A stretch of DNA of 64,000 nucleotides from Chloroflexota bacterium (GTDB lineage: Bacteria > Chloroflexota > UBA6077 > JACCZL01): assembly GCA_030447245.1 (NCBI GenBank), contig JAUJPG010000022.1, positions 21,885-85,884 of the forward strand, in the 5' to 3' direction. The position numbers and the translations under genes are program-made. Shown one piece after another: positions 1,529 through 47,835 of this stretch. The first letter of the stretch is position 1, and every line of letters starts with the position of its first letter. The notes beneath the pieces are model-generated. The model saw only the letters and a list, made by a program, of their open reading frames with translations. It made no database searches and was not told the origin of the DNA.

Positions 1529-1572
1529 GTGTGGAATCGGAACCCTTCGCAACCGAACGTTCAGGAAGCCGC

Positions 1573-2481: not shown

Positions 2482-2532
2482 CTGATGCCTCCTTGCATTC
2501 GGCAGCCTCGACTGCGACGGGCGTTCGTCGTA

Positions 2533-4033: not shown

Positions 4034-4464
4034 ATGCCGGCTGACGAGCGCGATTGGTTGGCGAATCGAGCGACGAAGCTGTCCTTGACGGGTGTCTTCC
4101 TCGCCCTCATGGCGGCGTTCTCCGCGCGGCTTAGCGGCCGCCAGGAGACTCTGGAGATCCGACCTTTCGATCTGTTGCTGCTCGGGCTGTCGACCTACGG
4201 ACCCGGTCGCCTCGTGGCCTTCGAGCGGGTGACAGCGCCGCGGGGAGCCCTTCACCGAGACCAAACCAGACGATTCTGGTGCCGGGCGAGGTCGTCGTCG
4301 CTCGCGGGAGCGGCACGCGGCGGGTGCTCGGCGAGCTTGTGTCCTGTCCGGTCTGCGTCGGGAGCTGGGTCGCCGCCGGCCTGGTGTACGGGCTGCACCT
4401 CGCCCCGGGCCCCACCCGGGTGTACCTGGCGGTCCTGGGCACGGCGGGGCGGCCGAGCTGCTGA
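4034..4464 (+). pseudogene. DUF1360-family membrane protein, two closely spaced frameshifts
   Basis: N-part MPADERDWLANRATKLSLTGVFLALMAAFSARLSG...FERVTAPR (frame 2), then EPFTETKPDDSGAG (frame 0), then EVVVARGSGTRRVLGELVSCPVCVGSWVAAGL (frame 1). Joined, these match the DUF1360 consensus ...TSPLRAPFT...GELLTCPFCxxxWVA. Confidence 0.5.
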
Positions 4465-4737
4465 ACTGCTCGGCCGAGGCGCTGGGCTGGCTGGGGCGGG
4501 CCGCGCGCAAGGACGCCGGCACGTAAGCGGGGCGCGGGCGTGGACGTCGCGCTGCCGCGGGTAACGCGACAGGTCATTGTCGCCGTGGCGCCGAGGAGAC
4601 GCGGTAGCAGCCTCGGCTGTCGTCCCAGGTCATGTGGTTCTGGGTGCGCGGGACGCGGCGCCAGAGCTCGTCTCCGTCCCGGATTGTCGGGTCATCGACG
4701 TGCGGTCGGTCGGCCATGCAACGGGCAGCGGCCGCCG

Positions 4738-4923
4738 CTACGCGCGCGCCGTCAGCTCGCGAAGCACCTCACGGAGCGGTCCGGGCCCCTCGGTCAGCGT
4801 CAGCTCGCGCTCGGTCCCGCCGCGCAGATCCTCGTACCAGACCCGCGGCGGCCCTTCGGGTGGGACGACGACCTCAATGTCCATCCCGCGCAGGTGCCAC
4901 TCCAGCTGGACGTCGCCCCGTGA
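4738..4923 (-). CDS. small hypothetical protein (MSRGDVQLEWHLRGMDIEVVVPPEGPPRVWYEDLRGGTERELTLTEGPGPLREVLRELTARA)
   Basis: Protein-like composition, sits immediately downstream of the DUF433 gene on the same strand; no family recognised. Confidence 0.25.
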   Translation of the reverse strand, partial: SRGDVQLEWHLRGMDIEVVVPPEGPPRVWYEDLRGGTERELTLTEGPGPLREVLRELTARA

Positions 4924-5122
4924 CATTGGCACCACCGCGGGAGCCGGGCGTGTCGGTCTGCATGGCCGTCGCCAGCAGCGTGACTGCTCTGCCGGCGGCC
5001 CGCGGCTGATTGGCTTAGCCGAGTACGAATTCCACCCGGCAGCCAGCCGCAGCAAGCCGAGCAAGCTGCTCACCACCGGTCCAAGCCAGCGGGGAAGTGT
5101 GCCCTTCATGACCCACCCATAC

Positions 5123-5371
5123 TCACCAGCGGAGCCACACCGCAGCGGTCCGCTGTCGCTCGACGGCGATCCGAGCGTAGGCCAAACACGCCCGCACGTC
5201 CTCGTCAGTCAGCTCAGGGAACGCTTCCAAGAGGTCGGCCCGATCGTTCTCCTCAAGGTGAGCCAGGACGCGCTCTACCGGGATGCGGGTGCCTTTCACC
5301 ACCGGCTTACCGACCATGATCTCAGGGTCTTGGGTGATGCGGTGTTGGTAGTGTTCTGGTTCGTGCGCCAT
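5123..5371 (-). CDS. DUF433 domain protein (antitoxin-like)
   Basis: MVGKPVVKGTRIPVERVLAHLEENDRADLLEAFPELTDEDVRACLAYA matches the DUF433 consensus (GxPxIxGTRIPV...ILEDYP.LTxEDIxAALAYA). Confidence 0.65.
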   Translation of the reverse strand: MAHEPEHYQHRITQDPEIMVGKPVVKGTRIPVERVLAHLEENDRADLLEAFPELTDEDVRACLAYARIAVERQRTAAVWLRW

Positions 5372-5452
5372 CGTGATACCTCTGACGGGCATTATCTCAC
5401 GGGTCTGGCACTGGGATGGCGATCAGCCCGTCAGGACGGGGTGGAGGGGGAG

Positions 5453-6076
5453 ATGGACGTGGGGCGGTTGGCGATGCCGATTGGCGAGGCGATGTTTACG
5501 CAGCGGGCGACGCGGCGGTTTCGGCCGGACCCGCTGCCGATGGAGGACATTCGGCTGATGGTGGAGGCGGCGTCGAAGGCGCCGAATGGGGGCAACCGGC
5601 AGATCGCGCGCTTCCTGGTGGTAACCGACCGCCCGCGGGTCGAGACGTTCGGGGCGCTGTACCGCGAGGCATGGTGGGCCAAGCGGCGAGACGAGCAGGG
5701 CTGGAGCGGGCCGGACGACATCCCGGCCGAGGACAAGACCCACCGCGCGGCGATGGGGCTGGCCGACGAGATGCGGGACGTGCCCTGCGTGGTCTTCGCC
5801 CTGGCGTTGCCGCCGGGGGCGGCCAACTCGGTGCTGCCGGCGGCGCAAAACTTGATGCTAGCGGCGCGGGCGCTTGGGATCGGCTCGGTGCCGACGACGC
5901 TCCACCCCGACGTGATGGACCGCTTCCACGCGATGTTCGCGATCCCGTCAGACGTCTCCTTCCACTTCTGCATCCCGCTCGGCTACCCGCGCGGCGGCTT
6001 CGGGCCGACGTCTCGGAAGCCAACCCGAGAGACGACCTACCTGAACCGCTGGGAGCAGCCGGTTCCCTGGGAGTAG
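5453..6076 (+). CDS. nitroreductase family protein
   Basis: MDVGRLAMPIGEAMFTQRATRRFRPDPLPMEDIRLMVEAASKAPNGGNRQIARFLVV...; the ATG at 5453 sits inside a longer spurious ORF and is preceded by GGAGGGGGAG. Confidence 0.8.
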   Translation: MDVGRLAMPIGEAMFTQRATRRFRPDPLPMEDIRLMVEAASKAPNGGNRQIARFLVVTDRPRVETFGALYREAWWAKRRDEQGWSGPDDIPAEDKTHRAAMGLADEMRDVPCVVFALALPPGAANSVLPAAQNLMLAARALGIGSVPTTLHPDVMDRFHAMFAIPSDVSFHFCIPLGYPRGGFGPTSRKPTRETTYLNRWEQPVPWE

Positions 6077-6095
6077 GCAATGGCGCGGCAGCCGG

Positions 6096-6245
6096 GTGGA
6101 GGGATCAGCGGGCGCTGTGGAGGATGGTAGGGGGGCGCTGGTGGCGTTGGCGGAGGAGCGCGGCCTCAATCAAGTGTTCACGCTGGATGGCGAGTTCCGC
6201 GTCTATCGCCTTGCGCGCGGCAGAAGCTTCGTGGTGATTCCCTGA
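6096..6245 (+). pseudogene. possible C-terminal remnant of a PIN-domain (VapC-like) toxin
   Basis: ...ALVALAEERGLNQVFTLDGEFRVYRLARGRSFVVIP* resembles the VapC C-terminus (...LTLVTxDRDFxRIPGLxVxxP); no N-terminal part remains. Confidence 0.25.
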
Positions 6246-6381
6246 CCCGGGGGCGCTCACTCAATTACAGAGGCATGGGCGAGGACGGCGGCCATCGTCG
6301 CGGGACGGAACTGGTCGTTGCATGGGGTGGGCAGCTCTGGGTGAGGGATCGGGGTATCGCGCGGCCGGATGGTCCGCGAGC

Positions 6382-6924
6382 TCAGACTGGCTTGAGGGGA
6401 CGGTGCGGAGCTGGCGGGAGCTCGACGGACACCGAGTCGCCGGGCTGGACGAGGCCGCCGGCGACGACGACCGCCATGACGCCAGCCTTGCGGATGAGGT
6501 TGCCGCGGTCGTCGCGGTCGAGGGTCGCGGCCATCAGGCCGGACTGGACCTGATCGAGCTGTGCGCAGGGGTTGCGCAGACCGGTGATCTCGACGATCGC
6601 CTCGGCGCCAAGCCGGAGGCGGGTGCCGGTCGGCAGTCCGAGGAGATCGATGCCGCGGGTGGTGACGTTCTCGCCGATCTGCCCGGCGGCGACGTCGAAG
6701 CCGGCATCGCGTAGCTCCTGGAGGAGCTCGGCCTGGAACAGGTGGACCTGACGGAGGTTCGGCTGGCTCGGGTCGCGGGCGACGCGCGAGCGGTGCTTGA
6801 CGGTGGTTCCAGCATGCGCGTCGTCCTCAACGCCGAGTCCCACGAGCAGCCAGATGCCCGGCTGGTTCGATTTGGCCATGGTATGGGCCGCGCTTCGGCT
6901 CACCGCCTCGACCCGGCCGGTCAT
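6382..6924 (-). CDS. MOSC domain protein (YiiM-like)
   Basis: MTGRVEAVSRS...GVEDDAHAG...GENVTTRGIDLLGLPTGTRLRLGAEAIVEITGLRNPC matches MOSC conserved blocks; the N-terminal extension of the ORF is discarded. Confidence 0.75.
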   Translation of the reverse strand: MTGRVEAVSRSAAHTMAKSNQPGIWLLVGLGVEDDAHAGTTVKHRSRVARDPSQPNLRQVHLFQAELLQELRDAGFDVAAGQIGENVTTRGIDLLGLPTGTRLRLGAEAIVEITGLRNPCAQLDQVQSGLMAATLDRDDRGNLIRKAGVMAVVVAGGLVQPGDSVSVELPPAPHRPLKPV

Positions 6925-7415
6925 GCTCGGCCGCCGCCACGTGCCCCGGCAAGGGCACCGGGGAGCAACGCGGGGCAGGCCACGACGTGTCCGGCGTCGG
7001 CCAGCGTCCGGGTACACGGGTCGAACGGGTAAACGAGGCCGGTCGCGACCGTGCAGCTGAACAGGAGGTGCATAGTTCGTCGCTCCACACAGAGGGCGTC
7101 TGCTCGTCACGGACCGCCATCGTGACGGTCCTGGCGGTCGTACCGCGGCTGCGCGCTGTCTACGGGTCGGTAAGTATGACAGGCGGCGCGCCGGGTGGGC
7201 CGGGCGAGCGAGCGGTCGGGCGTCGCCGGGCCGACATGACGTCGAGTGGCGGCGCGGCGGACCGGGTTCCTCAGAAGCGCTCGGGACTGGTCGGTCCTTG
7301 ACAACGCATCTTGTGGCAGGCGATCGTAGCCACGGCACGCATCCCGGGGGTCTGGGGTTGGCGTCGCGCCACTCGCCGTCAGGCGGGGGCGTACGGTGGG
7401 CGCGGGGAGGCCGCG

Positions 7416-8186
7416 GTGGTGGACCTGGAAGAGGCCGCCGATTCAATCTGGGCCGCGGCCAGGCGTGGCGTTCACTATCCGGCCGAGTGGCGGGACAAGC
7501 TGTCGTTGGAGGATGGCTACCGGGTCCAGCGCGGGATCCTGGCCCGCCATGTCGCCGAGGGGGAGGTCCAGGTGGGCTGGAAAGTGGGCCTGACCGCCCC
7601 GGCGATCCAGCGCCAGTTCGGAGTGCACGAGCCGGTCTTCGGATTCCTGCTCCGGAGCGGCGCGCGGCCGAGCGGCACGGTGTTCGCCGCGAGCGAGCTG
7701 ATCCGCCCGGGCTTCGAAAATGAGCTGTGTCTGACGATGGGGGCGACGCTGCGCGGCCCGGGCGTCACGCTCGACGAGGCGCGCGCGGCGATCGCGGGGG
7801 TGGCTCCAGCGCTCGAGATCGTCGAGACGCGCGGCGACCTGGCGCGCGACCTGGCCCTGACGCTGGCCGACAACTGTCAGCAACGGGCCTTTGTCACCGG
7901 ACCGGTGACGGTGCGTCCGCCCGACGGGTTCACGCTGAGCGAGGCGACCGTCGAGGTCTACGTCAACGGACGGAGCATGGAGCGCGCCAGCGGCGCCGAG
8001 GTGCTCGGCGACCCGGCCGCCTCGGTCGCCTGGTTGGCGAACAAGTTGGCCGAGCTCGACCGAGACCTGGAAGCGGGCATGCAGGTCATGTCCGGCTCCT
8101 TCACCCGCCAATACCCGCTTACCGCCGGCGACCGGGTCGAGGCGCGATTCGAGCCGTTCGGGCCGGTCGGGGCCGAATGCCGCTGA
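7416..8186 (+). CDS. 2-keto-4-pentenoate hydratase / 2-oxohepta-3-ene-1,7-dioate hydratase family protein
   Basis: GWKVGLTAPAIQRQFGVHEPVFGFL...ENELCLTMG...EIVETRG matches the MhpD/HpaH hydratase family; start taken as GTG 7416 (uncertain, could be ATG 7311). Confidence 0.7.
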   Translation: MVDLEEAADSIWAAARRGVHYPAEWRDKLSLEDGYRVQRGILARHVAEGEVQVGWKVGLTAPAIQRQFGVHEPVFGFLLRSGARPSGTVFAASELIRPGFENELCLTMGATLRGPGVTLDEARAAIAGVAPALEIVETRGDLARDLALTLADNCQQRAFVTGPVTVRPPDGFTLSEATVEVYVNGRSMERASGAEVLGDPAASVAWLANKLAELDRDLEAGMQVMSGSFTRQYPLTAGDRVEARFEPFGPVGAECR

Positions 8187-8234
8187 GGCGACCCTGAGGA
8201 CGCTCAACGACTGCTCGATGGGGCGGCTCAGCAG

Positions 8235-8450
8235 ATGATGGACGCCGTCCACCGCTGCGAGAGCACCGTCAGCCGCATGCTGGACGACGGCATCTTGGCC
8301 CTGTTCGGCGCCCCAATCGCCCATGAGGACCACGCCCTCCGAGCCTGCTACGCCGCCGCATGTCGTTCGGGCGCCAGCGCCGAGCAGGGCGACCTGGAGT
8401 GCCGCCTGGCGCCGCTGCTTGGCGAGCAGCCGCGGACGAGTGGGCGATAG
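8235..8450 (+). pseudogene. adenylate/guanylate cyclase catalytic-domain fragment
   Basis: DGILALFGAPIAHEDHALRACYAAA is the class III cyclase core motif; only about 70 aa remain. Confidence 0.45.
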
Positions 8451-10282
8451 CGCGGGGCCGACCGACCGGCACATACTGGAGCTGGTGGCTGGAGAGGAGC
8501 GGCGAGGTGGAAGGAACCGCTAGGCGACATGCCGAGCGCTGCCTCGCGCTGGCGGAGGCTGCCGCGCCGAAGCTTCGAGGGCCCGAGCAGGCAGTCTGGC
8601 TGGCTCGGCTCGAGCAGGAGCACGACGAGCTGCAGACGGCGCTGGCCTGGAGCCTGGACCAGGCGAACGGCGCGGCAACTGTCGAGATTGGGCTGCGTCT
8701 GGCCGGAGCATTGCCATGGTTCTGGTTCGTCCACAGCCACCTTGCCCTGGGGCGACGCTGGCTCGAGCAGGCGCTCGAGAGGTCCAGCGCGACAGCGCCC
8801 TCCGGCCGAATGAAGGCAGTCCTCGGGCTCGGCCGGCTGACGCTCGAGCTGGGCGACCTTGGATCGGCGGAGGCTCGCTTCGAAGAAGGCATGACCCTGG
8901 CCCGCGAGCTGGGTGACCGACGACGGATGGCCGCCGCAGTCGACGGCCTGGGACTGGTGGCCCACGCCCGGGCCGACCACAAGCGGGCCCTGAGACTGCT
9001 GCGGGAGAGCCTGACGCTCTCCCGAGGCCTCGGCGACGAGCGCGGCGTCGCCGACGCGATCGGCAATCTAGGGCTCGTGGCGCGAGATCAGGACCAGACC
9101 GAACACATGGTCGCGCTGTACGAGGCGAATCTGGCACGCTACCGCGGTCTGGGGGACGCGCGCGGAGTTGCGTGGTCGCTCCATTGTCTGGGATTCGCGG
9201 CGCGGCAGCGATACGACGACGAGCGGTCGACAGCGCTGTTCGACGAGAGCATGGCGATATTCGAGGCGCTCGGCGATCGGCGCAGCGTCGCCTGGACGCT
9301 CCACAATCTGGCGCTCATCGCGCAGGCGCGGGCCGACTATGGACGGGCCGTCCCGCTCCACGAGGACAACCTGGCCCGCTTCCGAGCCTTCGGGGACACC
9401 CGGGGCGTTGCCGGAACGCTGCTGCACCTGGGGATCGTCGCCCGCCAGCAGGACGACTACGGACGGGCGATAGCGTTCTTCGAGCAGGCGCTGAGCCTGT
9501 TCCGACAGATCGACGACCGGCCGGGCATCGCCTGGTCGCTCCAGAACCTCGGCATCACGGCGCGCTACCAGGGCCGCCACGACCGGGCGGCGAGCCTGTA
9601 CGACGAGAGCCTTGCCCGGTTCCGAGCCCTGAAAGATCGCCGGAGCATCGCCTGGTCGCTCCGCGATCAGGGGATCCTGGTGCGCTACCGAGGAGACTAC
9701 GCGCAAGCCACACCGCTCTACGAAGAAAGTCTGGCCCTGTTTCGCGAGATCGACGAGCGGCGCGGGACGGCCTCGTCACTCCGCAACCTGGGGACCGTGG
9801 CGCGCGAGCAGGGCGACCACGAGCGAGCAGCTGCGCTGTACGAGGAGAGCCTGGCTCTGTTCCGCGAGATCGGCAACACCCGCGGAATCGCCTGGTCCCT
9901 CCGCAGCCTGGGGACCGCCGCGCAGGCGCGCGGCGACCATGGGCGGGCGGCAGCGCTGTACAGGGAGAGTCTGATCCTGTTCCGCGAGTTGGGCGACAAG
10001 AGGAGCATTGCCTGGTGCTTCCACAATCTGGGGACCGTGGTGCGCGAGCAGGGCGATGCCCGGCGGTCCGCCCACCTGCTCGGGGCGGCCGAGGCCCTGC
10101 GCCACGCCATCGGCGCCCCCTTGCCGCCCGGCGGACCGGGCCTCTTACGAACAGGGCCTGGCCGCCAGTCGCATCCCGCTCGACGGGGAGGCCCTCGCGG
10201 CGAGCTACGCAGTGGGACGGACGATCAGCCTGGAGCAGGCGATCGCCTACGCGCTGGACGAGCGGAAGTCGGTCTGAAGTGA
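8360..10282 (+). pseudogene. TPR-repeat domain of a large cyclase/NB-ARC/TPR regulator; NB-ARC domain missing, 3' frameshift near 10130
   Basis: More than 12 TPR-like repeats (...LGD.RGVAWSLHNLG...). The real C-terminus (...GAPLPPADRASYEQGLAASRIPLDGEALAASYAVGRTISLEQAIAYALDERKSV*) is in another frame (10008..10277) after one extra G at about 10130. The upstream cyclase fragment joins directly to the TPR region without the expected P-loop ATPase. Confidence 0.55.
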
Positions 10283-31681: not shown

Positions 31682-31930
31682 CCACGGTGAAGACGCAGGC
31701 TGCCATCCCGAGCAGCTTGCCTGTCATCCCGAGCAGCTCCCCTGCCATCCCGAGCAGCTTCCGTGTCATCCCGAGCAGCTTCCCTGTCCTCCCGAGCGCA
31801 GCGAGGGATCTCATGCTGACGGGAGCGTGAACATGAGATCCCTCGCTGCGCTCGGGAGGACAGACTGTGCCGCGCTCGGGATGACGGACTGGGGCCGCTC
31901 GGAATGACAACCCCTCGTCTTCACCGTTGG
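31682..31930. repeat. MITE-like composite palindromic element: terminal inverted repeats, 4 x 21-bp tandem repeats, perfect 32-bp-stem hairpin
   Basis: TIR CCACGGTGAAGACG (31682-31695) pairs with CGTCTTCACCGTTGG (31916-31930). Tandem repeats of CTGYCATCCCGAGCAGCTYCC span 31700-31783. A hairpin with stem 31784-31815 / 31832-31863 follows, then degenerate inverted repeat copies. No ORF. Confidence 0.5.
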
Positions 31931-31939
31931 GTCGTACTA

Positions 31940-33130
31940 GTAGACTGTCACACACGATCTGACGGCTATGATGCTACGTGATTGGGGAGGGCATCGGTCA
32001 TGACCAAGAAGCATCGAGTCGTGCTCGGTTGCAGAACGGGAGCAGTTGGGTTGGGTCGGGTTCATCGCGGCTGTGGTTCGGCGTGGCGCGCAGGCATGCG
32101 CGGATTCTGCTCAAGGCGGACGAGGGGGCGGACGGTCCGGGGTGGAAGGACGAGCGGATTGGTGACGGCGCTCGACGTCAGCGTTCCGACCGTGGAACTG
32201 GGTGCGCAAGCGGTATGCGACCGAGGGGCTTGCGGAGGCGGTGCAGCGTCGAGCGTTGCAGGGCAACAAGCCGCGGAAGCTCGATGGTGCCCAGGAAGCG
32301 CAGCTCATCGCCTCGCCTGCCTCGGCACCGCCCATGTGGTCGGCGGGGTGGAGCCTGCGGTTGCTGGCCGGGCGGATGGTGGCGCTGTACGAAGCTCGAC
32401 GGGGTTTCGTACGAGACGATCCGCCGGACACGCTCAAAAAACGAGCTGAAGCCGTGGTTGAAGGCCCAATGGTGCATCCCGCCCAAACAGAGCGGCGAGT
32501 TCCGGTCTGGCGGATGGGAGTGCTGGATGATGGTACTGCCGTCCATACGATCCTCGCGTTCCCCAAGTCTGCATGGACGGAGACGAACAAGCGCTCCTGG
32601 GGCTGGCCGCCCGAGCCGTCGCTGCCGCCATCCCCGCCCACATCGACAACGAGTACCGACGACTCGGCACGGCCAACCTCTTCCTGTTCTGCGAGCCGCT
32701 GCGTGGCTGACTAGGTGAAGGGGGTCACCGAACGGCGAACCAGTCGACTGGGCGGTAGCGATCCGGGACTGGTCGACGTCCAGTATCCGAGGCCGAACGG
32801 ATCGTGCTGGTCATGGACAACCTCAATACCCACACTCCCGCGTCGCTTTACGAGGCCTCGAACAGGCTGAAGCCAAGCGCCTAGCGGACAAGCCTGACAT
32901 CCATCCCACCCCCAAGCATGGCAGCTGGCTCCAGCATCGCCGAAATCGAGTTGAGCGTCCTGGCGCGTCAGTGCCTGGACGCCGGATCGACAGCCTCGCG
33001 ACGCTCACCCATCGAGCCCGGCAGGTCGCTGGTCCAGAACGCCAGGCCAGCGTCGACTGGCGCTTCTCCACCGCCGACGCTCGCGTCAAGCTCAAGCGCC
33101 TTACCCATGCGAACTGTTGCGACAGTCTAC
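31940..33130 (+). mobile_element. IS630-family insertion sequence, copy 2 (1191 bp); TA target duplication
   Basis: Ends GTAGACTGTCAC... and ...GCGACAGTCTAC are inverted repeats; TA flanks at 31938-31939 and 33131-33132; the internal ORFs are IS630 transposase fragments. Confidence 0.75.
32000..33105 (+). pseudogene. IS630-family transposase, multiple frameshifts and small deletions
   Basis: MTKKHRVV...ARILLKADEGADGPGW...RKRYATEGLAEAVQRRALQGNKPRKLDGAQEAQLIA...SYETIRRTRSKNELKPWLKAQWCIPPKQSGEF...IVLVMDNLNTHTPASLYEA...HGSWLQ...DWRFSTADARVKLKRL is spread over all three frames. Confidence 0.65.
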
Positions 33131-35551
33131 TAGTTCGCCGAGTAGCGTTCCGGGAACCACATCGCGAGCACGTCGGCGGCGGTCGCGATGTGCGAGCCGT
33201 CACCAGCAGCCGACAGATCGGGCTCCTCGATCGCGATGTCATCGACGGCGCTCGGCCGTCCCTTGATGCCGTCGAGCTTGCAGCGGATGAGCACCGCGCC
33301 GCTGAGATCGCGGCCGTCCCAGTTCGCATTGCGCAGATCGCAGTCCTCGAACCGTGCCGCGCGCGTGGTCGACTCGGGCAAGCGCGCGATCGGCGCGAAG
33401 CTCGCGCCCTGAAAGTCGCAGCGCATGAACGTCGCGCCGTCGAGCTCCGCGTTCGCGAATGACGAGCCACTGAGGTCGGCGCCGACGACCCGAGCACCTC
33501 GCCACTGACTGCGATCGAGGTCAGCGCCTCCGAACACGGTGCCTTCGATCGTCGTGTCATCGAACCTGGCGAGCACGAGGAGAGCGCTCGTGAACGAGCC
33601 CTCCTCGATCTTCGCGCCACGGAACGACACCGATTCGAGCATGGCGCCGGTCAGCCACGCATCGCAGCTCGGCGTCGTCGAGGCTCGCGAAGCTGAGGTC
33701 GGCCTCGGTGAGATCCACGTCGTCGAGCCTGGCACCTGCGAGCTCGACCCGGTCAACCGCACGCCGCCGCCTGCGTACCGACCAGGCGAGCCGGCCCTCG
33801 CCGCGCTGTCCCGCTTTGATCCAGCCTTCGTGCGCGCGCAGCGCATCGCGATCGAGCTCGACCTCGCGCGTGTGCGCCGTCTTGCCGCGACCGCCGCCAC
33901 TCTCGAGCTTCTCGATCCTCGGCAGGTCCGCCACGTGGCGGGCGCGAATCGCGAGGCACTGCTCGCGCTCCGTCTCCAGCCATGCGCGCTGGTAGCGCTC
34001 GGGGCGCGCCTTCCGATCGGCGCGCTCGGCGTCGCTGAGCCGGTCGAGCGGAATCTCGCTCGCGCCATCCGGCACGAACTTGCACAGCTCGTTGAGGCAC
34101 ACGAGCAGGCGCGTGTTCGCGTCGCGGCTCGCCTTCCACTCGTCGACGCCGAGCTGCGCTGGGTCCGGCCGCACGAGCGGGATCAGGCGTTCGATCTCGG
34201 CGATCCACTGCGCGGGCGCGATGATCTCGGACGGCCACGGTCCACCGAGCTCGTCGCGCGGCGTCGGCGCCGTCAATGGGTCGCCCTGGGTCAGGAACGT
34301 GAACCCTCGCGGCGTCGCGCAGCTCGGGCAATCGCCGGACAACGCCCAGCCTTCGTCATTGCCGGCGAGGTGCAGCTGCTGCGCGCCGATCCGCGTCCCG
34401 CACGTCGGGCACGGGGCGAGCGACGCCGCGACATGCATCTCGTGGATCGATCTGGCGCGCGCCACGAGTTGGTTCCGTCGCGCTGTGTTGGCCCCGTCTG
34501 CGAGAACCTGACGCACGCGTTTACGGACGGGGCGGATCGGCACGCCCCTGGGGAATTGCGCGAAGCTGTTGATCAGATCCTCGGCACGCCCGGGCGCCGC
34601 ACGTGCCACATCCTCGGCGACCGACGAAAGCCAGGCGCTGTCACCTCGAGCGAGCGCGTCGTAGAGCGGTCGGCTGCCCTTGCCCGCAAGGGCTTCTGCT
34701 CGCGCGACGTCACGCGCGCGGCTCGGCGCTGCGACGAGGCTCGGCGCTGCGACGAGAGGGCCCAGCACGCGCCAGATCGACTCTTCCAGCGTGCGATCGA
34801 GGTTCGGGACCGGAGTCAGCTCGTCGGGGACGCCGGCAAACAGGCGCCGATCACCGTCGAGAACCGCGAGCAGCCGTGCCCGAGCTGTCTCGTTCGGTAC
34901 GTGATAGAAGAACTGAAGCGCGAGCCCCCGCGCGCGAGGCTCGGGATCCTCGAGAGCCGACAGCGCCGCGTCTACAACCACACGGGCATCTGGCGGCATC
35001 AGCCGCGCATGCAGGCGAGCCAGCCATGCGCCGCGGACCGCGTCGGCCGCGCGCGTCCGCGGCGGGGAAAAGCCATGCAGCCCGCGCTGGGCGAGCTCAC
35101 CGAGCTCGGCCCGCGACGTCACCACGACCCCATCGACGTCGTGCGGGAACGCGATCCGCGGGTGACCGTCGCATCGCCAGGGCACGCTCGGATCCAGGTT
35201 CAGATCCGGATCTGGCTCACTGCACGCGTGCTCCCGGATCTCGAGCCAGCGGCTGCACGGACACAGATAGAGGCGGTAGTCGGGCTGCGTCTGGTGGAGC
35301 AGCGGAGAGGTCGCAAGATCGGCGGTTCCGTAGAGCGCCGCGAGCGCAACGCCGGCGACATCGTCTGGCGTGCGAAACGCCAGCCCCGGTGCATCACGCA
35401 CCATGACACCGCAGCGCGTGCACCGCACCCGACTGCACCCGACGGTCGGCAAGTCCTCGAGGTGAAAGTCCGTAGGATCCGTCGGGATCGAACGCGTCGC
35501 ATCGACGAGGTAGCCGTCATGCGCGCAGCGATTCATTCGGACGGTGACCAT
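33130..35551 (-). CDS. large Cys-rich hypothetical protein with C-terminal pentapeptide repeats; apparent frameshift near 33645
   Basis: 664-aa ORF (CxxC pairs: CTRCG, CPTCGTRIG, CPSC) runs into pentapeptide repeats (ARLDDVDLTEADLSFASLDDAEL). After a 1-nt shift these continue in ORF 33130..34068 (AMLESVSFRGAKIEEGSFTSALLVLARFDDTTIEG...ADLSGSSFANAELDGATFMRCDFQGASF). Confidence 0.5.
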
Positions 35552-35696
35552 CTGGCTTCTTCCCGTTCAGCTCATCGAGCGTTGTTCCCACCGAGGCGGC
35601 GGGCTCGACCACCCGGCGCTTGGCCATGCCCGGCGCCCTCCCAACAGCGCGACGACGGGCCAGGTCATCCGGCGCCCGGCGCGGCAGCCACGCCGG

Positions 35697-35978
35697 CTAC
35701 GTGACGAGCTTGGAGGGGCCGATGCGCCTCTGGTACTCGGACTTCTCTCGCTCGTCTTCGTACTCCCGCTGCAGGTACGGGTCGACTCGCGTCCAGCAGG
35801 TCGGCCAGTCGTGGAACTCTTCCACCACCTCGCCGTCGACAAGGAGGGAGTACCGATACGCCGACTCGGGGACCTCGTTCGCTCGTACCTGCCGCCGCTC
35901 CCCGTCCACCTCGGCCTCCCAGGGCGTGCGCGCACTGCCACCCAGCTCGAAAGCCACCGGCTGCGCCAGGCGACTCAT
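35697..35978 (-). CDS. hypothetical protein (94 aa, acidic)
   Basis: MSRLAQPVAFELGGSARTPWEAEVDGERRQVRANEVPESAYRYSLLVDGEVVEEFHDWPTCW...; its start abuts the stop of the upstream gene. Confidence 0.35.
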   Translation of the reverse strand: MSRLAQPVAFELGGSARTPWEAEVDGERRQVRANEVPESAYRYSLLVDGEVVEEFHDWPTCWTRVDPYLQREYEDEREKSEYQRRIGPSKLVT

Positions 35979-36607
35979 CGCGCCGTCGCTCCCTGGCGGA
36001 CGGCGTCCGCCCACCCGGCCACTCCGTCCGTCAGCGGCCGGTCTTCCCTGGGCCGTGGGCCGGCCGGCCGTGCCGGGGCCGAGCCCGCGACAGCATCGCT
36101 CGCCCCGTCGCGGCCGGCGATGACCGCCGCCGGGTCGAACGGCAGGGCGCCCGGCGGACAGGCGGTCAGGCCGCTCAGCGCGGCGCCCTGTCCCTTCACC
36201 TCAGGGGCATCCCCTCCAAACTGCTCCTCCCAGAGAAACTGGACGAGGAGCCCGTCGATCACCGCGTAGATTGGCGTCAGGTACAGCGTGTCTTCGAGGC
36301 TGAAGGCCCGCGGTGCGGGATAGGTCCGGGCCACCGCGCCCGCGGGCGTGACCAGGTAGTACGGCACGGCGGCGTGGATCACTTCGCCGGTAGGCAGACG
36401 GATGCCCGCGGGTAGGCGGTGCGGTAAGGGCTCGGCCGCCCCTTGGAGCAGGTAGTGCCCGTCCGGGAGTGACCAGGCGGCGGGCATCCCCGCGTCGCCC
36501 GGGCCCTGGGCGGCCAGGCGACGCGCGTAGTGGAGCACCTCGGCCACCGCGGCATCGGGCAGGTGGTCAACGAGGGTGTGCAGCTCCCCGCGGGCTTCGA
36601 CGCTCAT
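35975..36607 (-). CDS. hypothetical protein (210 aa)
   Basis: MSVEARGELHTLVDHLPDAAVAEVLHYARRLAAQG...; first gene of an apparent three-gene minus-strand operon; no family recognised. Confidence 0.4.
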   Translation of the reverse strand: MSVEARGELHTLVDHLPDAAVAEVLHYARRLAAQGPGDAGMPAAWSLPDGHYLLQGAAEPLPHRLPAGIRLPTGEVIHAAVPYYLVTPAGAVARTYPAPRAFSLEDTLYLTPIYAVIDGLLVQFLWEEQFGGDAPEVKGQGAALSGLTACPPGALPFDPAAVIAGRDGASDAVAGSAPARPAGPRPREDRPLTDGVAGWADAVRQGATAR

Positions 36608-36799: not shown

Positions 36800-38239
36800 T
36801 TAGCCCGCGCGGCAGTCCACCTCCACGCGCATGGCGTTGTTCTGCTCGCTGCCCTCGACGATCTGGTTGTCCGGATCGGCGATCACCTGCACGCGCTGCC
36901 GGCCCGCTTTGAGGGGGTCACCCCGCGAGACTAGCTCCCGCCGTTCGGTGTGGGCCGCCAGGCCGGCGATGGTCCGGCGTGTTGGCGGCTCGTCCTCGAG
37001 CTTCACCTGGACGGTCAGCTCGCCGGCTCCCACGCTGCCGTCGTTCCGGATCGTTGCCCAGATCTCGTTGCCTTCGCCGACGAAGCAGCGCTCGCCGTTG
37101 AAGGCGCGGACGTCAACCCCGATCACCTGCAGGTCGACGCCCTTCGGACTCTCGAGGACCTCGGCCCGCGGGCCCGCGGGACGGCCGTCCGGGGCGGTAG
37201 CGAGGATCGTTCCCCCCGGGCCGGGGGGCGGGGCCGGGTCCGCCTCCCGCGCGGCCTCGTCCGGGAGGTCACCGGGCCGGCTTTGCCCCAGCAACGTGCG
37301 GTCCAGCACCTGCTCGAGCCGGTTGTTCGCCTCGTCCGCCTCCGGAACGGCGCGCTCCTCGTCGACGACCAGCGCCAGCCGGTGGAGCCCCCAGGTGGGC
37401 AGCGTCACGGCCTGGCAGACCCCGTTGGTCTCGCCGGGCGCCAGGGTGGTCGGGCCCATGCTCCCGCCCGGCGCGGGGGCGCCGTCCAACAGCAGGCTCA
37501 TCCGGAATGGCTCGGAGGCCCGCGGCCCGTCGTTCCGGGCGACCAGGCACACCTCACCCGTGTCGTCGTACACCCGGATGGCCGTCGGGCGCAGGTCCGG
37601 CAGCGCGACGCGGCGGATCTCGTATTCGACGCTGAAGTCCGCGGGCACCACCTCACAGGTATTGTTTTCGTAGTCGCCAACACTGCTGCAGTAGCGCGCG
37701 ATGCCTCGTTTGGCGTAGGTGCCCGGGGGACCCCAGCCGTTTTGCTCGTTCATGGCCACAGCGAAAGAGCCGAGAGACGTCTGCGGGACCCCTCGGATGT
37801 CGTCCAGGAGCTCTTTGGACCAGTCGTCCACCTCCTCGCCGACGAACTCGAACCGATAGCTCCCGCCGGCATAGACGGGGAAGCCGATCCCCGGGCCGAT
37901 CGACGGGTCGGCAACCTGATCGCCGGCCCCCGGGACGGCCCGATAGAGTGGCACCGTGTGGCCGTCATTCGCGCTGAAGCTCATGATGGTTCCGGCAAGC
38001 TGGGTGCCACGCTCGAAGATGTTGACGCCGATGCGGATCTCGCCTGCGCCCCGAGGCCCCCAGTCGTTGTCATCGTGGATGGTGATCGTCTTGACCACGA
38101 TCTCCAGCCGCGCCGCGGGTTCGTGGTCGGGCTGGTGGTCCGCGCGCACGGGACCCGGCGCCCCGAGCGCTGGGAGCACCAGCGCGGTCGCGAAAGCGAG
38201 CGCGGGCACGGCGCGGTGGGCAGTGTCGATGGCTTTCAT
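36800..38239 (-). CDS. secreted protein with two CARDB-like domains
   Basis: Signal peptide MKAIDTAHRAVPALAFATALVLPALGAPG, then CARDB-type motifs (LRPTAIRVYDD...VCLVARNDG...EADEANNRLE; LTVQVKLEDE...NQIVEGSEQNNAMRVEVDC). Confidence 0.7.
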   Translation of the reverse strand: MKAIDTAHRAVPALAFATALVLPALGAPGPVRADHQPDHEPAARLEIVVKTITIHDDNDWGPRGAGEIRIGVNIFERGTQLAGTIMSFSANDGHTVPLYRAVPGAGDQVADPSIGPGIGFPVYAGGSYRFEFVGEEVDDWSKELLDDIRGVPQTSLGSFAVAMNEQNGWGPPGTYAKRGIARYCSSVGDYENNTCEVVPADFSVEYEIRRVALPDLRPTAIRVYDDTGEVCLVARNDGPRASEPFRMSLLLDGAPAPGGSMGPTTLAPGETNGVCQAVTLPTWGLHRLALVVDEERAVPEADEANNRLEQVLDRTLLGQSRPGDLPDEAAREADPAPPPGPGGTILATAPDGRPAGPRAEVLESPKGVDLQVIGVDVRAFNGERCFVGEGNEIWATIRNDGSVGAGELTVQVKLEDEPPTRRTIAGLAAHTERRELVSRGDPLKAGRQRVQVIADPDNQIVEGSEQNNAMRVEVDCRAG

Positions 38240-38294
38240 GAAACGGTGGCTGAACATGGCGTTCCTCTCTCGGGCGGGTGCCGCTAGCGCCCGG

Positions 38295-39788
38295 CTAGCG
38301 GCTGATGCAGTCCAGCTCGACGGTCCTGGCGTTGTTCGTTTCGCTGGCTTCGATCACCGTGTTGTCGGGATCAACGATCACTTGCAGGCTGCCCTCGCCC
38401 TGCGAGATCCCCACCTCCTGGATCTCCACCTGCATCTCGGAACTCGACGCCAGGCCCCCGACGGTCGTCCGGCCGCGCTGCTGGTTGCCCACCTTCGCCT
38501 CGACGGCGAACGCGCCCGTTGACGCGTCGCCGGTGTTCTGAATCGTCACCGCGACCAGGTTCCTCCCGCGTGCCTCGCATCTCCCGCCGTCGTTACTGGA
38601 CGTGACCTCGACTGGACCCACCTGCAGGTCGGGATCCGGCAGCTTGATCAGGCCCGGCTGCGGGACCGACGGTGACACGGGGCCGGGCGGCCGCACGCTA
38701 GGGAGTCCGAGCGTCGGTCCGGTGGGGCCTGGGTCGGCGAGCGTGTTGCCGTCCAGTCCGCCGACCGGGCCGGCGTCCGACCCGACCCGCGCGGCAACGT
38801 AGGGCTGGCCGAAACGGTTGTTGGTCTCGTTGTTCTCCGGCACGATGCGCCGCTCGTCCACGGTCACCGACAACTGGTGCTGACCGGATGTGGGCAGGTC
38901 CGTGCCGGTGCAGAGCACGCCGAAGTCCCCTGAAGGGAGGCCACCCGCCGAGACGGTCCCGTTGCGCAGGACGTCGGGGCCGGCACGTAGCGTCATCTCG
39001 AACGGGCCGGGGTTCTTCACCCCGCGGTTGAGCACGCTCATGCACACGACGTCCTCGGTGCTGCCCGGCAGCTCGACGATCTCGATCTTCGTCGGCTCGA
39101 GGTCCGGCAGCAGGGCATGACGGACCTCGTACTCGGCGGTGAAGTGCGCGCGATGGCAACCGGTAGGACCCGACCTAACGCAGAAGCCTAATACACCGTC
39201 ACCCCCACCCCTCCAGCCACGTTCGGTCCAGGTACCGATGCCCCAGCCCATATCCTGGTCGACGAGCCCGATGAGGTCCCCCATCTCGTCGTCGGCACTC
39301 ACTTCGTCCCGTTCGACCCCCACGATTTTCCACCCGTAGGTTTGGCCCGCGTATACCGGGAAGCCCATTCACGGGCGGATACAGAGGAACGGCATACAGT
39401 CGCCGGCCGCGAAAGCTCCGATTCAGAGGCACCACCTTGTCATCACTCGCGCGGAAGGTGATATCCGCGCTCTGGGCACGCAGCGTCTGCCCCCGACTCT
39501 CAAACGGCGAACCCGCATAATCACAGAAGTCCGTGGTGTCGGGGGCGCAGCTCCAGAAGCTGACGGTGAAGGTGAAATCGCCTTGGCCCCAATCCTGATC
39601 GTCGTGGATGATGATCTTGTTGATCACAAACTCGAGCCGCGCGACAGGATCGTGACCCGGCCTCGTGCTCCGCGCGCGCGGGACCCCGGCGCCCCGAGCG
39701 CCGTGAGCACCAGCGCGATCACGAGACCAAGCGCGGGCATGGCGCGGCGGAGGGCGTCAATGGTGGTGGTGACATGGGGGTTGACCAT
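38295..39788 (-). pseudogene. paralog of the CARDB protein with two frameshifts
   Basis: Signal peptide MVNPHVTTTIDALRRAMPALGLVIALVLTALGAPG (frame a); KIIIHDDQDWGQGDFTFTVSF...SDDKVVPL (frame b); GFPVYAGQTYGWKIVG...NTVIEASETNNARTVELDC (frame c). The shifts lie in a (CG)5 run near 39640 and at an extra G near 39400. Confidence 0.55.
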
Positions 39789-40008
39789 GGCTCGATCTCC
39801 CTGCAACCGATCCTCTGGGCCCAGTGTATGGCCTGCGCGGCGCCGCCGAGGTGCGCGCCGACACCGCGCGCTGTCAGTTGGCCGACACTTCGGCCGACCG
39901 GGCGGCGATGGCTGACCTCTGGCGGTCTGGAGTTGGTTCTCCAATGCCGCCGTCTGCGCGGCGCCGGGCCAGCGACCCCGGAAGGCGCCGGGCGCAGAGC
40001 CGACGCCG

Positions 40009-44736: not shown

Positions 44737-44901
44737 GGTGAAAGGATACGCCAAGACGCCGAACCAGGGCGGCATCACGCCCAGTAGCTGCCAGGCGCCG
44801 GTGGCGTCGGTCGCGGCGCAGGTGAAGCGACCGACCGATCGGCTGGGCCGTCTACAATCGCTGGGTGCGAGTTGCCGGCGGGTGCGGGCGGGGGGGCGGT
44901 A

Positions 44902-45756
44902 GTGACGGCGAAACGGGTGCGGTTCGGGATCAAGACGGCGCAGATGGGTGGCCGCTACGCGGAGATGCGGGCGGCGTGGCTGGAGGCCGACCGGCTGGGC
45001 TTCGACACGGCCTGGGCGCACGACCACCTGCTGAACCAGAACGACATCTCGGCGCCCGAGGACGAGGGCTGGATCGCGCTGGCGGCGCTGCTGGCGCAGA
45101 CCGAGCGGATCCGCGGCGGGCTGATGGTCAGCTCGAACACCTTCCGTCACCCGAGCCTGCTGGCGAAGATGGCTGCCACGGCCGACGTGGTCTCCGGCGG
45201 GCGACTGGAGGTGGGCATCGGGGCGGGCTGGTTCGAGGACGAGCACGCTCAGTACGGCATCCCGCTGCCGCCGGTCGGCGAGCGGATCAGGCGGCTGGAC
45301 GAAGCCTGCCAGATCATGAAGGCGCTCTGGACAGAGCCGCGAGCGACGGTTGTCGGCGATTACTACCAGGTGCGCGAGGCGTACCACGAGCCAAAGCCGG
45401 TCCAGTCGCCGCACCCGCCCATCGTGATCGGCGGCAGCGGGGAGAAGCTGACGCTGCGAGTCGTCGCGCGACACGCGAACGAGTGGAACATGTCCAAGGG
45501 CACGCCTGAGGAGTTCCGCCACAAGTGCCAGGTGCTAGACGAGCACTGCCAGGCGGTGGGGCGCGCTCCAGGGGAGATCGAGCGCTCGATCCAGTTTCCG
45601 CCGCCGGACATGGCCGACGCCGCGGGCCTGGCCGGTCGGGCTCGTGAGTTCGTCGCGGCGGGAGCCACCCACGTGATCTTCACCTGCCCGCAACCGTACA
45701 GCGCGGAGGGGGCACGCTGGCTGTGGGACGAAGTGGTGGGGCAGGTCCAGACGTAG
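44902..45756 (+). CDS. LLM-class F420-dependent oxidoreductase (luciferase-like monooxygenase family)
   Basis: FGIKTAQMGGRYAEMRAAWLEADRLGFDTAWAHDHL...GRLEVGIGAGWFEDEH...SPHPPIVIGGSGEK; GTG start at 44902. Confidence 0.8.
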   Translation: MTAKRVRFGIKTAQMGGRYAEMRAAWLEADRLGFDTAWAHDHLLNQNDISAPEDEGWIALAALLAQTERIRGGLMVSSNTFRHPSLLAKMAATADVVSGGRLEVGIGAGWFEDEHAQYGIPLPPVGERIRRLDEACQIMKALWTEPRATVVGDYYQVREAYHEPKPVQSPHPPIVIGGSGEKLTLRVVARHANEWNMSKGTPEEFRHKCQVLDEHCQAVGRAPGEIERSIQFPPPDMADAAGLAGRAREFVAAGATHVIFTCPQPYSAEGARWLWDEVVGQVQT

Positions 45757-45777
45757 CGGCGTCGGCCGACCTTGTCC

Positions 45778-46671
45778 TCAGGTCTGCAACGGGAGCACCT
45801 GGGCGGCGAGATCCTCGAGCTCCTCGGTCCACGAGGCTGGCTCTTCGGCAGGCCGGATCACGAATTTGGAGACGCCCGCGTCGACGAAGCGCTCGAGGGT
45901 TGCTCGGGCGGCGCGCGGCCCGACCGGGACGAGCGCGGACGGGTCGAGCCCCGGCCGGCGCGCCGCGATGGTCCGAACGAGGGACGACGGAATCTCACCG
46001 CGGGCGTAGACGATGCTGGCGCCCCAGTGTTCTGGGTCCATCATCCGCCCCGCCTCCGCCGCCGCCTGTTCGACGACCACCCGGCCGGCGGCCGCTTCGG
46101 AGGGCGTGCACAGGCTGGGGAGCCAGCCGTCGCCGAGGCGGCCGGCGCGCCGTAGCTCGGAAGGCGCAAGGCCGCCGAGCCAGACTTCGAGCGGTGACTG
46201 GATCGGCCGGGGGCGTATCGTGAGGTCGCGGTACGAGAAGCGCGGCCCGCTGTGGTCGACGTGATCCTCGGCCCAGAGACGGCGGATCAGGGGCAGCGCC
46301 TCCTCGAACCAGGGGCCGCGCTCGGCCCGGCCAACGCTAAAGGCGCCGTGTTCTGATGGGTCGGCGATGCCGAGCCCGACGGCGAGCAGCAGCCGGCCAC
46401 CCGAGAGGCGGTCCAGGCTGGCCAGCTCTTTGGCCACGATCGCCGGGTTGCGCCCGGGGAGCACCAGCACACTGGTGCCGAGCTTGAGCTTGCGGGTGTG
46501 ACCGGCCACGAACGCCAGAGCCACGATCGGGTCGAGGGTTGCACCGGTCAGCCGCTCGGACAGCCACAACGAGTCGAAACGGAGCCGCTCGAGATCGGCG
46601 GCCAGCCCGGACAAGGTTCCCTCGTCGCGAAGGCCCTGGATGCCCAGGCCGAGGCCGATGCGGACCTTCAC
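45778..46671 (-). CDS. LLM-class F420-dependent oxidoreductase
   Basis: VKVRIGLGLG...FDSLWLSERL...GRLLLAVGLG...SPLEVWLGG matches luciferase-like family blocks; GTG start. Confidence 0.75.
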   Translation of the reverse strand: MKVRIGLGLGIQGLRDEGTLSGLAADLERLRFDSLWLSERLTGATLDPIVALAFVAGHTRKLKLGTSVLVLPGRNPAIVAKELASLDRLSGGRLLLAVGLGIADPSEHGAFSVGRAERGPWFEEALPLIRRLWAEDHVDHSGPRFSYRDLTIRPRPIQSPLEVWLGGLAPSELRRAGRLGDGWLPSLCTPSEAAAGRVVVEQAAAEAGRMMDPEHWGASIVYARGEIPSSLVRTIAARRPGLDPSALVPVGPRAARATLERFVDAGVSKFVIRPAEEPASWTEELEDLAAQVLPLQT

Positions 46672-46800
46672 CCGGAGTATGCCCGGCCGCGGTCTCGGCG
46701 AGGATGACGGCCCCGGCACGCTTCCATTCTTGCGGATCGCCGGAGACGTGTCACGGTCATGTCGAGTGTCTCAGCGGGCGGCCGGGGCGATGGCCACGGG

Positions 46801-47835
46801 TCATGCCGTTCGGGTCGCGGCCTGAGCCTGGGCGGTCAGGTCGAACGCAGCGGCAAGAAGCTCGTAGGAGCGTACGCGCGCCGCGAAGTCGTGGGTAATC
46901 GTGACGACGACGTACTCGTCGACGCCGTACTCGGCGCCTAGGGCGGTCAGGCGGTCGCGGACTTGCTCGGGGGTGCCGACGATCGAGCGGTCAGCGCTGT
47001 GCTCGACGATCGCCTGCTCGTGGGGGGTGAAATGATGCGATTCGACCTCCTCAACGGAGGGGTACGGGCCGGGGTTGCCGGTGTAGAGTCGGGCGATGAA
47101 CAGGGCGCGGCTCTTGGCCAGGCGGCGGGCGTCTTCTTCAGTGTCGGCGCAGATCACGAAGACGCCGATGCTAGCTCGTGGCTCCGGCAGCCAGGGTGAC
47201 GGTCGGAAGTGACGTCGGTACGCTTCGACGACCTGGGGACCTCCGTGGGTGTTGATGAAATGGGCGAACGAGAAGGCAGTGCCGAAGTGGGCGGCGTAGG
47301 CGGCGCTCTCGTCGCTGGAGCCGAGCAGCCACAGCTCGGGCGCGGTCGACCCGGTCGGCATGGCGTGAACGCCGGCGAAGGGGTGGAAGGGGTCGAGGTC
47401 GTCATGGAGGAAGCCGACGAGGTCGGCGATCTGACTCGGAAAGTGCTCGATGCCGAGCGCGCCGGGGCCGTGGGCCAGCGCCCGGGCGGTCCTGGAATCG
47501 CTGCCCGGGGCGCGCCCGATGCCGAGGTCGATGCGACCGGGGTACAGCGTCTCGAGGACCCGGAAGTTTTCGGCCACCTTGAGCGGGCTGTAGTGAGACA
47601 GCATGACGCCGCCGGAGCCGACGCGGAGGCGCTCGGTGCGCGCGGCAACCTGGCCGATCAGGACTTCCGGGCTGGAGCCGGCCAACCCGCCGCTGGAGTG
47701 GTGCTCGGCCAGCCAGTAGCGGTGGTAGCCGAGTCGATCGGCGACCTCCGCCAACCGAAGCGTCTCGCGGAGCGCGTCGGCGCCGGTGCCGCCGCTGCGG
47801 ATCGGCGACTGGTCGAGGACGCTCAGGAGGGCCAC
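46801..47835 (-). CDS. LLM-class flavin-dependent oxidoreductase
   Basis: MALLSVLDQSPIRSGGTGADALRETLRLAEVADRLGYHRYWLAEHH...GRIDLGIGRAPGSD matches the luciferase-like monooxygenase family. Confidence 0.8.
   Translation of the reverse strand: MALLSVLDQSPIRSGGTGADALRETLRLAEVADRLGYHRYWLAEHHSSGGLAGSSPEVLIGQVAARTERLRVGSGGVMLSHYSPLKVAENFRVLETLYPGRIDLGIGRAPGSDSRTARALAHGPGALGIEHFPSQIADLVGFLHDDLDPFHPFAGVHAMPTGSTAPELWLLGSSDESAAYAAHFGTAFSFAHFINTHGGPQVVEAYRRHFRPSPWLPEPRASIGVFVICADTEEDARRLAKSRALFIARLYTGNPGPYPSVEEVESHHFTPHEQAIVEHSADRSIVGTPEQVRDRLTALGAEYGVDEYVVVTITHDFAARVRSYELLAAAFDLTAQAQAATRTA

Follow-up and report, generated by a model that had tools for sequence, protein, structure and literature searches.

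The 64,000-nucleotide window analysed here (contig JAUJPG010000022.1, positions 21,885 to 85,884) holds three hypothetical genes, A, B, and C, on its minus strand between a group of CARDB genes and an IS630-like insertion sequence (IS) element. Gene C is probably what is left of an orphan immunity cassette, now decaying, from a polymorphic-toxin-like system, a reading made by analogy with the loci of its relatives, where genes homologous to the first ~340 residues of gene C (the N-module) lie next to the 3' end of genes that share a conserved C-terminal domain of ~250 aa, which we call ToxCT. The observations on which it draws are the module architecture of gene C, the fusion and fission of these modules among relatives, the gene neighbourhood, a toxin-gene remnant, a frameshift, the insertion of the IS element, and the lack of linkage to A and B. 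An earlier note, made from the sequence alone, had taken A, B, and C for a single uncharacterized operon and likened it to defence or toxin/immunity-type modules; the toxin/immunity part of this guess suits the large gene C, whose relatives stand downstream of ToxCT and which is preceded by a vestige of ToxCT in the window, and it fails for A and B.

Modules of gene C and the loci of its relatives

A search of 5.8 billion proteins with gene C returned five relatives (P0001–P0005). P0001 (75% identity) and P0002 match residues ~360–807 only, a region made up of a zinc ribbon, a helical region, pentapeptide repeats, and a conserved tail, and P0003, P0004, and P0005 match residues 1–350 only and continue into other C-termini, which consist of a domain that we call X or of a region named TIGR02996 by its source together with Pfam LRV repeats. 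In locus L006, the N-module and the pentapeptide module are separate genes that overlap at TGATG, and they are likewise separate, overlapping genes in L009; P0041 is a second fusion of an N-module to a zinc ribbon. Read from these comparisons, gene C unites two modules that relatives encode as separate, overlapping genes.

The genes upstream of the N-module genes suggest the link to toxins. In L009, a metagenome-assembled genome (MAG) of the Haliangiales, an open reading frame (ORF) at positions 3–10004 encodes more than 3333 aa, in which four annexin repeats (Pfam E = 2e-37) are accompanied by an HExxH motif, a Ser/Thr-rich low-complexity stretch, two internal repeats of ~550 aa, and finally ToxCT, which lies in the last ~250–330 aa; Pfam recognizes only the annexin repeats. 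The giant ORF ends 4 nt inside the N-module gene, and the gene for the pentapeptide module comes next. ToxCT recurs at 40–52% identity in four further loci (L010, L011, L012, and L014), with many residues that are both invariant and polar across the loci. The ToxCT stop and the N-module start overlap by 4 nt in L009, L011, L012, and L014, and in L010, a MAG of the Kofleriaceae, the order is ToxCT, pentapeptide plus X, and N-module, with one gene interposed. Two of these five ToxCT/N-module loci belong to MAGs of Myxococcota. The full giant protein bearing ToxCT is visible in L009 only, and the contig of L014 holds the ToxCT tail alone. The gene for P0005 similarly overlaps by 4 nt a gene for a protein of more than 1900 aa. 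Giant annexin/metallopeptidase proteins of Haliangium have been described as carrying C-terminal toxin domains (PMC3482391, PMC3894181).

In L011 and L014, the N-module gene is followed by a convergent gene and there is no pentapeptide gene, and the contig of L012 ends too soon to tell. Since L011 and L014 do without a pentapeptide gene, the N-module alone may be the minimal partner of ToxCT, and the truncated 664-aa product of gene C described below may still be working. The convergent gene immediately after the N-module gene in L011 (2532–3851) and L014 (1109–2851, minus strand) is LRR-like and homologous to the C-terminal region of P0004, and P0004, P0045, and P0155 carry this region as a fusion to the N-module.

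L003 and L015 contain paralogues arrayed in tandem. The array of L015 (1–4403) is duplicated and runs on one strand in the order Z (302 aa), N-module, 215 aa, 122 aa, Z, N-module; its genes gave no Pfam matches, and the arrangement resembles a poly-immunity array. In L005, a gene that looks like a tyrosine recombinase by reading of its sequence (3746–4993) lies ~2 kb downstream of the stand-alone pentapeptide gene of P0002, which suggests that this copy may sit on a mobile element.

In the window, the N-module spans 34487–35536 on the minus strand and is predicted to comprise a Zn-binding beta domain followed by a HEAT/alphaRep-like alpha-solenoid. The ATG at 35536 (MNRC...) is probably the true start of gene C, because the homologues all begin with MN/TxC. 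Counted from this methionine, C34, C39, C42, C92, C94, C122, and H125 are invariant and C4 is nearly so. The Cys pairs pointed out in the earlier note are thus real, with seven Cys and one His invariant or nearly invariant in the N-terminal 130 aa in addition to the CPTC/CPSC pairs further on; the possible zinc ribbons of the note are partly borne out. An AlphaFold2 (AF2) model of the N-module, with a predicted local distance difference test score (pLDDT) of 95.4 and a predicted template modelling score of 0.91, shows a small beta-rich domain and then ~11 helices (residues 142–355). The top Foldseek matches are TOG/HEAT/ARM solenoids, with probabilities of up to 1.0 and E-values of ~3e-3, none reaching 0.001, and a profile of the N-module matches alphaRep proteins with E = 1e-4. 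As modelled, the helical half of the N-module is built of stacked helical hairpin repeats of the HEAT/alphaRep type. Neither Pfam nor NCBIfam nor PADLOC gave a match to the N-module, and its profile has no significant PDB sequence match outside the HEAT-like half.

A profile search of 1.84 billion representatives retrieved 668 clusters at 50% identity (E <= 1e-3), 131 of them at E <= 1e-30, and a search of metagenomes with a narrower alignment gave three loci. Most members stand alone, at 330–380 aa; among the longer ones, the fusion partner is a kinase plus TPR, TPR by itself, a DUF1080-type domain, the X domain, or an LRR-type region. The N-module represents an undescribed protein family of considerable size.

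The stretch directly upstream of gene C (35541–35630, minus strand; core 35550–35600, AASVGTTLDELNGKKPD) is a vestige of a ToxCT tail, equivalent to the 3' end of a toxin-type gene, and the reading frame of this vestige continues into the beginning of gene C. A tblastn search with the tail of L010 hit window positions 35600–35550 with 15 of 17 residues identical (E = 1e-4), and at the DNA level the vestige is ~80% identical to L010 over 51 nt. The best hit of the ToxCT profile outside its own family is this same segment (E = 0.012, profile positions 209–238 of 246), giving a remnant of 17–30 aa. A similar ToxCT remnant is found in L003 (3668–3763, E = 5e-9) beside a second paralogue of the N-module. 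Orphan cassettes are classically recognized by a truncated toxin 3' end ahead of an immunity-type gene.

Downstream of the N-module, gene C is split between an ORF at 35551–33557 (664 aa) and another, in a different frame, at 34068–33130. Repairing the frame gives a product of ~802–807 aa, in agreement with the ~800 aa of the earlier note. The frameshift that the note had suspected near 33645 is real; its position is that of a 2-nt deletion at 33656–33657 (GTGCGG to GT--GG on the minus strand, the gap falling between 33657 and 33656), found by DNA alignment with L006 and L005 and by three-frame translation. As a result of the shift, the first ORF runs through 33 out-of-frame residues to its end at 33557, and the pentapeptide repeats carry on uninterrupted over the frame change. 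Instead of the approximately 20 repeats first estimated, ~30 pentads were counted (24, a 9-aa loop, and then 6), and the frameshift falls after the sixth. The pentapeptide-repeat beta-helix region (33250–33748, minus strand) exceeds the Pfam gathering thresholds of PF00805 (E = 2e-18, 65.9 bits against a cut-off of 20.2), PF13599 (51.9 against 38), and PF13576 (45.7 against 27). Identity as Qnr, MfpA, or HetL was rejected on the NCBIfam equivalog cut-offs (33.5 against 240, 25.2 against 360, and 38.9 against 260).

Between the N-module and the pentads lie the zinc ribbon and the helical linker (33752–34429, minus strand), conserved in P0001, P0002, L009, L010, and P0041; the CPTC and CPSC pairs are at residues 381–411, and the region has a weak match to the rubredoxin-type domain of PknG (E = 2.7e-4, below the cut-off). 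The C-terminal tail with its TAG stop (33130–33249, minus strand) is conserved with P0001 and P0002. The G+C content at third codon positions (GC3) of gene C, 0.80, is the lowest of the 34 genes of the window (mean 0.862, sd 0.031), and PADLOC returned for gene C only ZorG with E = 0.013.

By analogy with polymorphic toxin systems, these elements can be assembled into a mechanism. In the relatives, a giant annexin-repeat protein ends in ToxCT, with its stop overlapping the start of the gene for a cytoplasmic N-module protein of ~340 aa, and the N-module gene is often followed by, or fused to, binder modules, namely the zinc ribbon–helical–pentapeptide module, the X domain, or the TIGR02996/LRR-type region. 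No signal peptide was evident from direct reading of the N-termini. That ToxCT is toxic and that the N-module and the pentapeptide module neutralize it is what we infer from this analogy: in the producer, the downstream proteins would neutralize the toxin domain, the HEAT solenoid through direct binding, and the pentapeptide beta-helix might serve as a DNA-like decoy or as a shield of the toxin's target. Of the toxin gene, the window keeps only the last ~20–30 codons; the cassette, with the N-module and the pentapeptide module fused into one ORF, would have landed, or been truncated, next to the A–B pair; the 2-nt deletion cuts off all but 6 of the ~30 pentads, and the IS630-like element has inserted in the stop codon. 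A partial function is possible, because the N-module itself is still intact.

Several observations weigh against this reading. ToxCT matched nothing in Pfam, NCBIfam, PDB, or PADLOC, and no toxic activity was identified. Between the only loci with sequence upstream of ToxCT, L009 and L011, homology extends through all of the 500 aa available, and alternative C-terminal tips were not seen in these two loci. Distant members of the N-module family are not found beside ToxCT (L001, L015, and L016). Because these members are not ToxCT-linked, and some have a kinase plus TPR or a DUF1080-type domain as fusion partner, the family may have broader, non-immunity roles. Annexin toxins delivered by PVC usually come without immunity genes (Zhang et al. 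2012, PMC3482391), a point that also favours the accessory-factor explanation considered below.

Genes A and B and the rival explanations

The G+C content of the window is ~70%, and GC3 was used as a filter to single out real-looking ORFs. A, B, and C lie between the CARDB genes and the IS element as three co-directional ORFs on the minus strand with coding-type GC3 (0.80–0.86), as the earlier note had described. Gene A (35975–36607, minus strand) encodes the 210-aa hypothetical protein that it had listed, identical to the deposited P0008. The protein has a conserved beta-rich core (residues ~44–165), a variable N-terminal helix, and an Ala/Gly/Pro-rich tail; the helix has a match to DUF2281 in Pfam below the cut-off (E = 0.019). 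Its homologues P0009 and P0010 cover the core only, and neither B nor C could be detected after their genes. The AF2 model of A, made from a three-sequence alignment, is poor (pLDDT 61), so that Foldseek hits on it are meaningless and no fold match can be assigned; PDB sequence and PADLOC searches found no match either. Gene B (35697–35978, minus strand; equal to P0006) encodes a hypothetical protein that is acidic, as noted before (isoelectric point 4.8), with a length of 93 aa rather than 94. It has no match in Pfam, PDB, or PADLOC, and its only homologue is P0007 in L007 (89% aa identity). The TGA of A and the ATG of B share the sequence ATGA, by which B is translationally coupled to A. The absence of any recognizable family was borne out: neither A nor B nor residues 1–600 of C gave a match above threshold in Pfam, NCBIfam, or PADLOC. 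When ToxCT, the rest of C, and neighbouring genes were scanned as well, these collections recognized just the pentapeptide repeats and the annexin repeats of the L009 giant protein.

The comparison with L007 separates A and B from C. L007 is 94% identical to the window at the nucleotide level from inside A through B, and it diverges 28 nt past the B stop, at 35669, into unrelated sequence with a CARDB-like gene and without C. With blastn identity to L007 ending at 35669 and homology to the toxin 3' end beginning at ~35630–35600, the junction between the A–B backbone and the cassette is placed at 35605–35669 (no strand assigned). Deletion mediated by IS630 as the cause of the missing C in L007 was considered and rejected, because L007 and the IS element of the window share no sequence similarity. 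In the other direction, sixteen loci with relatives of C were compared for A and B: six-frame hidden Markov model searches, made before L016 was added, detected no gene A homologue, and the six-frame searches gave no clear B homologue, only a weak B-like segment in L016. Because L007 keeps A and B without C, and the loci of C-relatives lack A and a clear B, A and B can be placed outside the cassette; judged on these comparisons, they are most likely a separate gene pair unrelated to C, and not one operon with it.

The proposal that A, B, and C form one functional operon, a defence or toxin–antitoxin (TA)-like module in which B acts with the N-module, is in our view very unlikely. It can appeal to the common direction of the genes, to the ATGA overlap of A and B, and to the lack of a terminator-like site between B and C, so that read-through from the A–B promoter is possible. 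The only hint tying B to C is a B-like segment (Y.L.VDG....DWP..W) fused N-terminally to an N-module in P0066 (residues 117–170; L016 172–1695) and P0086 (residues 3–27). For P0066, pairwise blastp gave E = 1e-6 and a non-circular profile E = 0.002 in 1919 sequences; for P0086, the non-circular profile gave E = 0.2; the similarity is marginal, and the genomic context of P0066 in L016 is uninformative. Against the operon stand the retention of A–B without C in L007, the absence of A from the C-relative loci, where similarity to B is confined to the weak fused segment of P0066, and the lack of PADLOC or TA-family matches. B and C do not abut as had been thought (only the A/B overlap is real): they are 145–160 nt apart, and the gap contains the toxin-gene remnant, which implies that C arrived with, or once followed, a different upstream gene. 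The three-gene operon of the earlier note is thus unsupported, the three genes being for the most part not conserved together.

Two further explanations concern gene C itself. The N-module and pentapeptide proteins could be accessory factors (a chaperone, an adaptor, or maturation or activation factors) of the giant annexin-repeat protein, with the copy in the window stranded. The same neighbourhood data would fit, since translational coupling is expected of any stoichiometric partner, and pentapeptide-repeat proteins are reported as accessory proteins of type VI secretion systems (reference list of PMC10933656). We nevertheless hold this to be unlikely: orphan copies without the giant protein exist in the window, L001, and L003, and the tandem arrays and promiscuous binder fusions are typical of immunity genes and hard to square with a dedicated chaperone. 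Alternatively, gene C might be an intact gene of ~807 aa, the frameshift being an assembly or sequencing error or a case of recoding, and its product a generic Zn/HEAT/pentapeptide scaffold in host physiology. The frameshift does come from a single assembly, both halves have coding-type composition, the downstream frame is open to the conserved C-terminus, and distant members of the N-module family have a kinase plus TPR attached. Yet the 2-nt deletion lies in a non-homopolymer context, GTGCGG, which is atypical of sequencing error, and no slippery motif was seen; decay of the locus is indicated by the toxin remnant and by the IS insertion in the stop codon, and the closest relatives are toxin-linked, so that an intact scaffold seems very improbable.

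Relation of the putative cassette to known systems

The preferred reading of gene C as an orphan immunity relic places it nearest to polymorphic toxin systems such as CdiA-CT/CdiI and the orphan modules of Rhs. Like these, the relatives have a giant protein with a distinct C-terminal domain and, immediately downstream, with stop and start overlapping, a gene for a small cytoplasmic protein, and orphan copies stand behind 5'-truncated toxin fragments (35550–35600 in the window, and L003). They also recall a described subclass, the annexin/metallopeptidase toxins of Haliangium. Unlike the known systems, ToxCT and the N-module match no Pfam, NCBIfam, or Ntox/Imm model that was tried, the window has no toxin gene, and variability of the tip was seen in none of the loci compared. 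Imm-HEAT and Imm-LRR are recognized immunity classes (PMC3482391), and the HEAT- and LRR-type binder arrays and fusions resemble them, the likeness being one of fold; unlike in Imm-HEAT, the HEAT repeats of the N-module are preceded by a conserved, predicted Zn-binding beta domain.

The pentapeptide module shares with Qnr, MfpA, McbG, and AlbG a right-handed quadrilateral beta-helix, A(D/N)LXX pentads, and a loop insertion. In these proteins, the fold mimics DNA and thereby shields a cellular target, DNA gyrase, from a toxic agent, which suggests how the pentapeptide module could aid immunity. The gene C protein differs from them in being ~4 times longer, with Zn/HEAT and zinc-ribbon modules, and in that its presumed antagonist is a protein toxin domain and not a small molecule. 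To our knowledge, DNA mimicry and target protection of this kind have so far been documented only against small-molecule or peptide gyrase poisons.

A more specific version of the immunity reading, which we consider quite unlikely, would make the cassette an 'acquired defence' gene, captured along with a fragment of the toxin gene from predatory Myxococcota (the relatives being in Haliangiales and Kofleriaceae), with the pentapeptide helix acting as a DNA mimic or in target protection against a protein toxin; it would protect against an uncharacterized contact- or particle-delivered toxin. The host appears to be non-myxobacterial because the window has F420-dependent luciferase-like (LLM) oxidoreductases typical of Actinomycetota/Chloroflexota, and cross-lineage capture of an immunity gene is a possibility. 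A weaker variant, at which the P0066 and P0086 fusions hint, would make the small protein B a further partner of the N-module. Acquired interbacterial defence by orphan or non-cognate immunity genes has been described (PMC10470768, PMC12483513), and the window resembles it in that an immunity-type gene lacks its toxin and is located in an accessory region with an IS, in a host possibly of another lineage than the toxin producers; it differs in that gene C is a single frameshifted gene and not a recombinase-associated array, and in that its protective function is predicted only.

With type II TA and anti-phage operons, the locus has in common the small, overlapping, co-directional genes A and B beside mobile DNA; unlike them, it has no TA or PADLOC family match, its DUF2281 match is below threshold, and A, B, and C are not conserved together. 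The earlier note had also spoken of defence modules, and nothing points to an anti-phage system: PADLOC was negative for A, B, P0001, P0003, P0014, and ToxCT, and scans of viral contigs with ToxCT and the N-module returned no relatives and no tie to phages.

If the immunity reading of gene C is true, ToxCT would be an undescribed toxin tip on giant annexin-repeat proteins of Myxococcota, and its partner a large undescribed family of 668 clusters that no Pfam model covers and whose Zn-domain-plus-HEAT fold is predicted with confidence. Gene C and its relatives would also be the first example of a pentapeptide-repeat module recruited into immunity against protein toxins, and they would provide handles for studies of myxobacterial antagonism and predation and for the annotation of many 'hypothetical' genes. 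The copy in the window is itself apparently a decaying relic, with the toxin lost, a frameshift, and an IS element in the stop codon, so that its local importance is probably small.

The IS630-like element and the surrounding window

The IS630-like element next to gene C occupies 31940–33130 (1191 bp, plus strand), or 31938–33132 with its TA duplications at 31938–31939 and 33131–33132. The terminal inverted repeat TAGTAGACTGTC was matched exactly at two sites, where 0.02 would be expected. The length of the element, its inverted repeat, and the TA duplication agree with the IS630 family, whose members measure about 1.1–1.2 kb. The transposase is split among at least three frames, and only a fragment of HTH_32 was detected in it (Pfam E = 5e-7, below the cut-off); the IS630-type motifs LKPW...W.IP and DNLNTH were read directly from the translations. 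The element is inserted in the TA of the TAG stop of gene C, and the stop was regenerated from the TA duplication (33131–33132) and the terminal base of the IS (33130), so that the IS is not 1 bp away from the stop, as had been stated, and its terminal base is itself part of the TAG. The element had been labelled 'copy 2', and no second related copy is present within the window. Searches of the window for other copies of the N-module, ToxCT, or A and B found none, and Rfam gave nothing.

Between a BNR-repeat gene and the IS630-like element lies a cluster of palindromic repeats made up of a 21-nt tandem repeat present 4.7 times (CTGTCATCCCGAGCAGCTTCC, 31700–31797) and, ~50 nt further on, a 24-nt repeat present 2.6 times (GGGATGACAG, 31848–31909), which contains the complement of the 21-nt repeat. 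On the other side of the three genes are two or three tandem CARDB paralogues, at 36800–38257 and 38295–39368 (Pfam CARDB), with an N-terminal-like fragment near 39199–39800; their 5' regions repeat at 78% identity as a direct repeat (38154–38260 and 39685–39791). Three LLM oxidoreductase genes are clustered at 44872–47835, and two of them exceed the curated cut-offs of the F420-dependent families TIGR03560 and TIGR03619.

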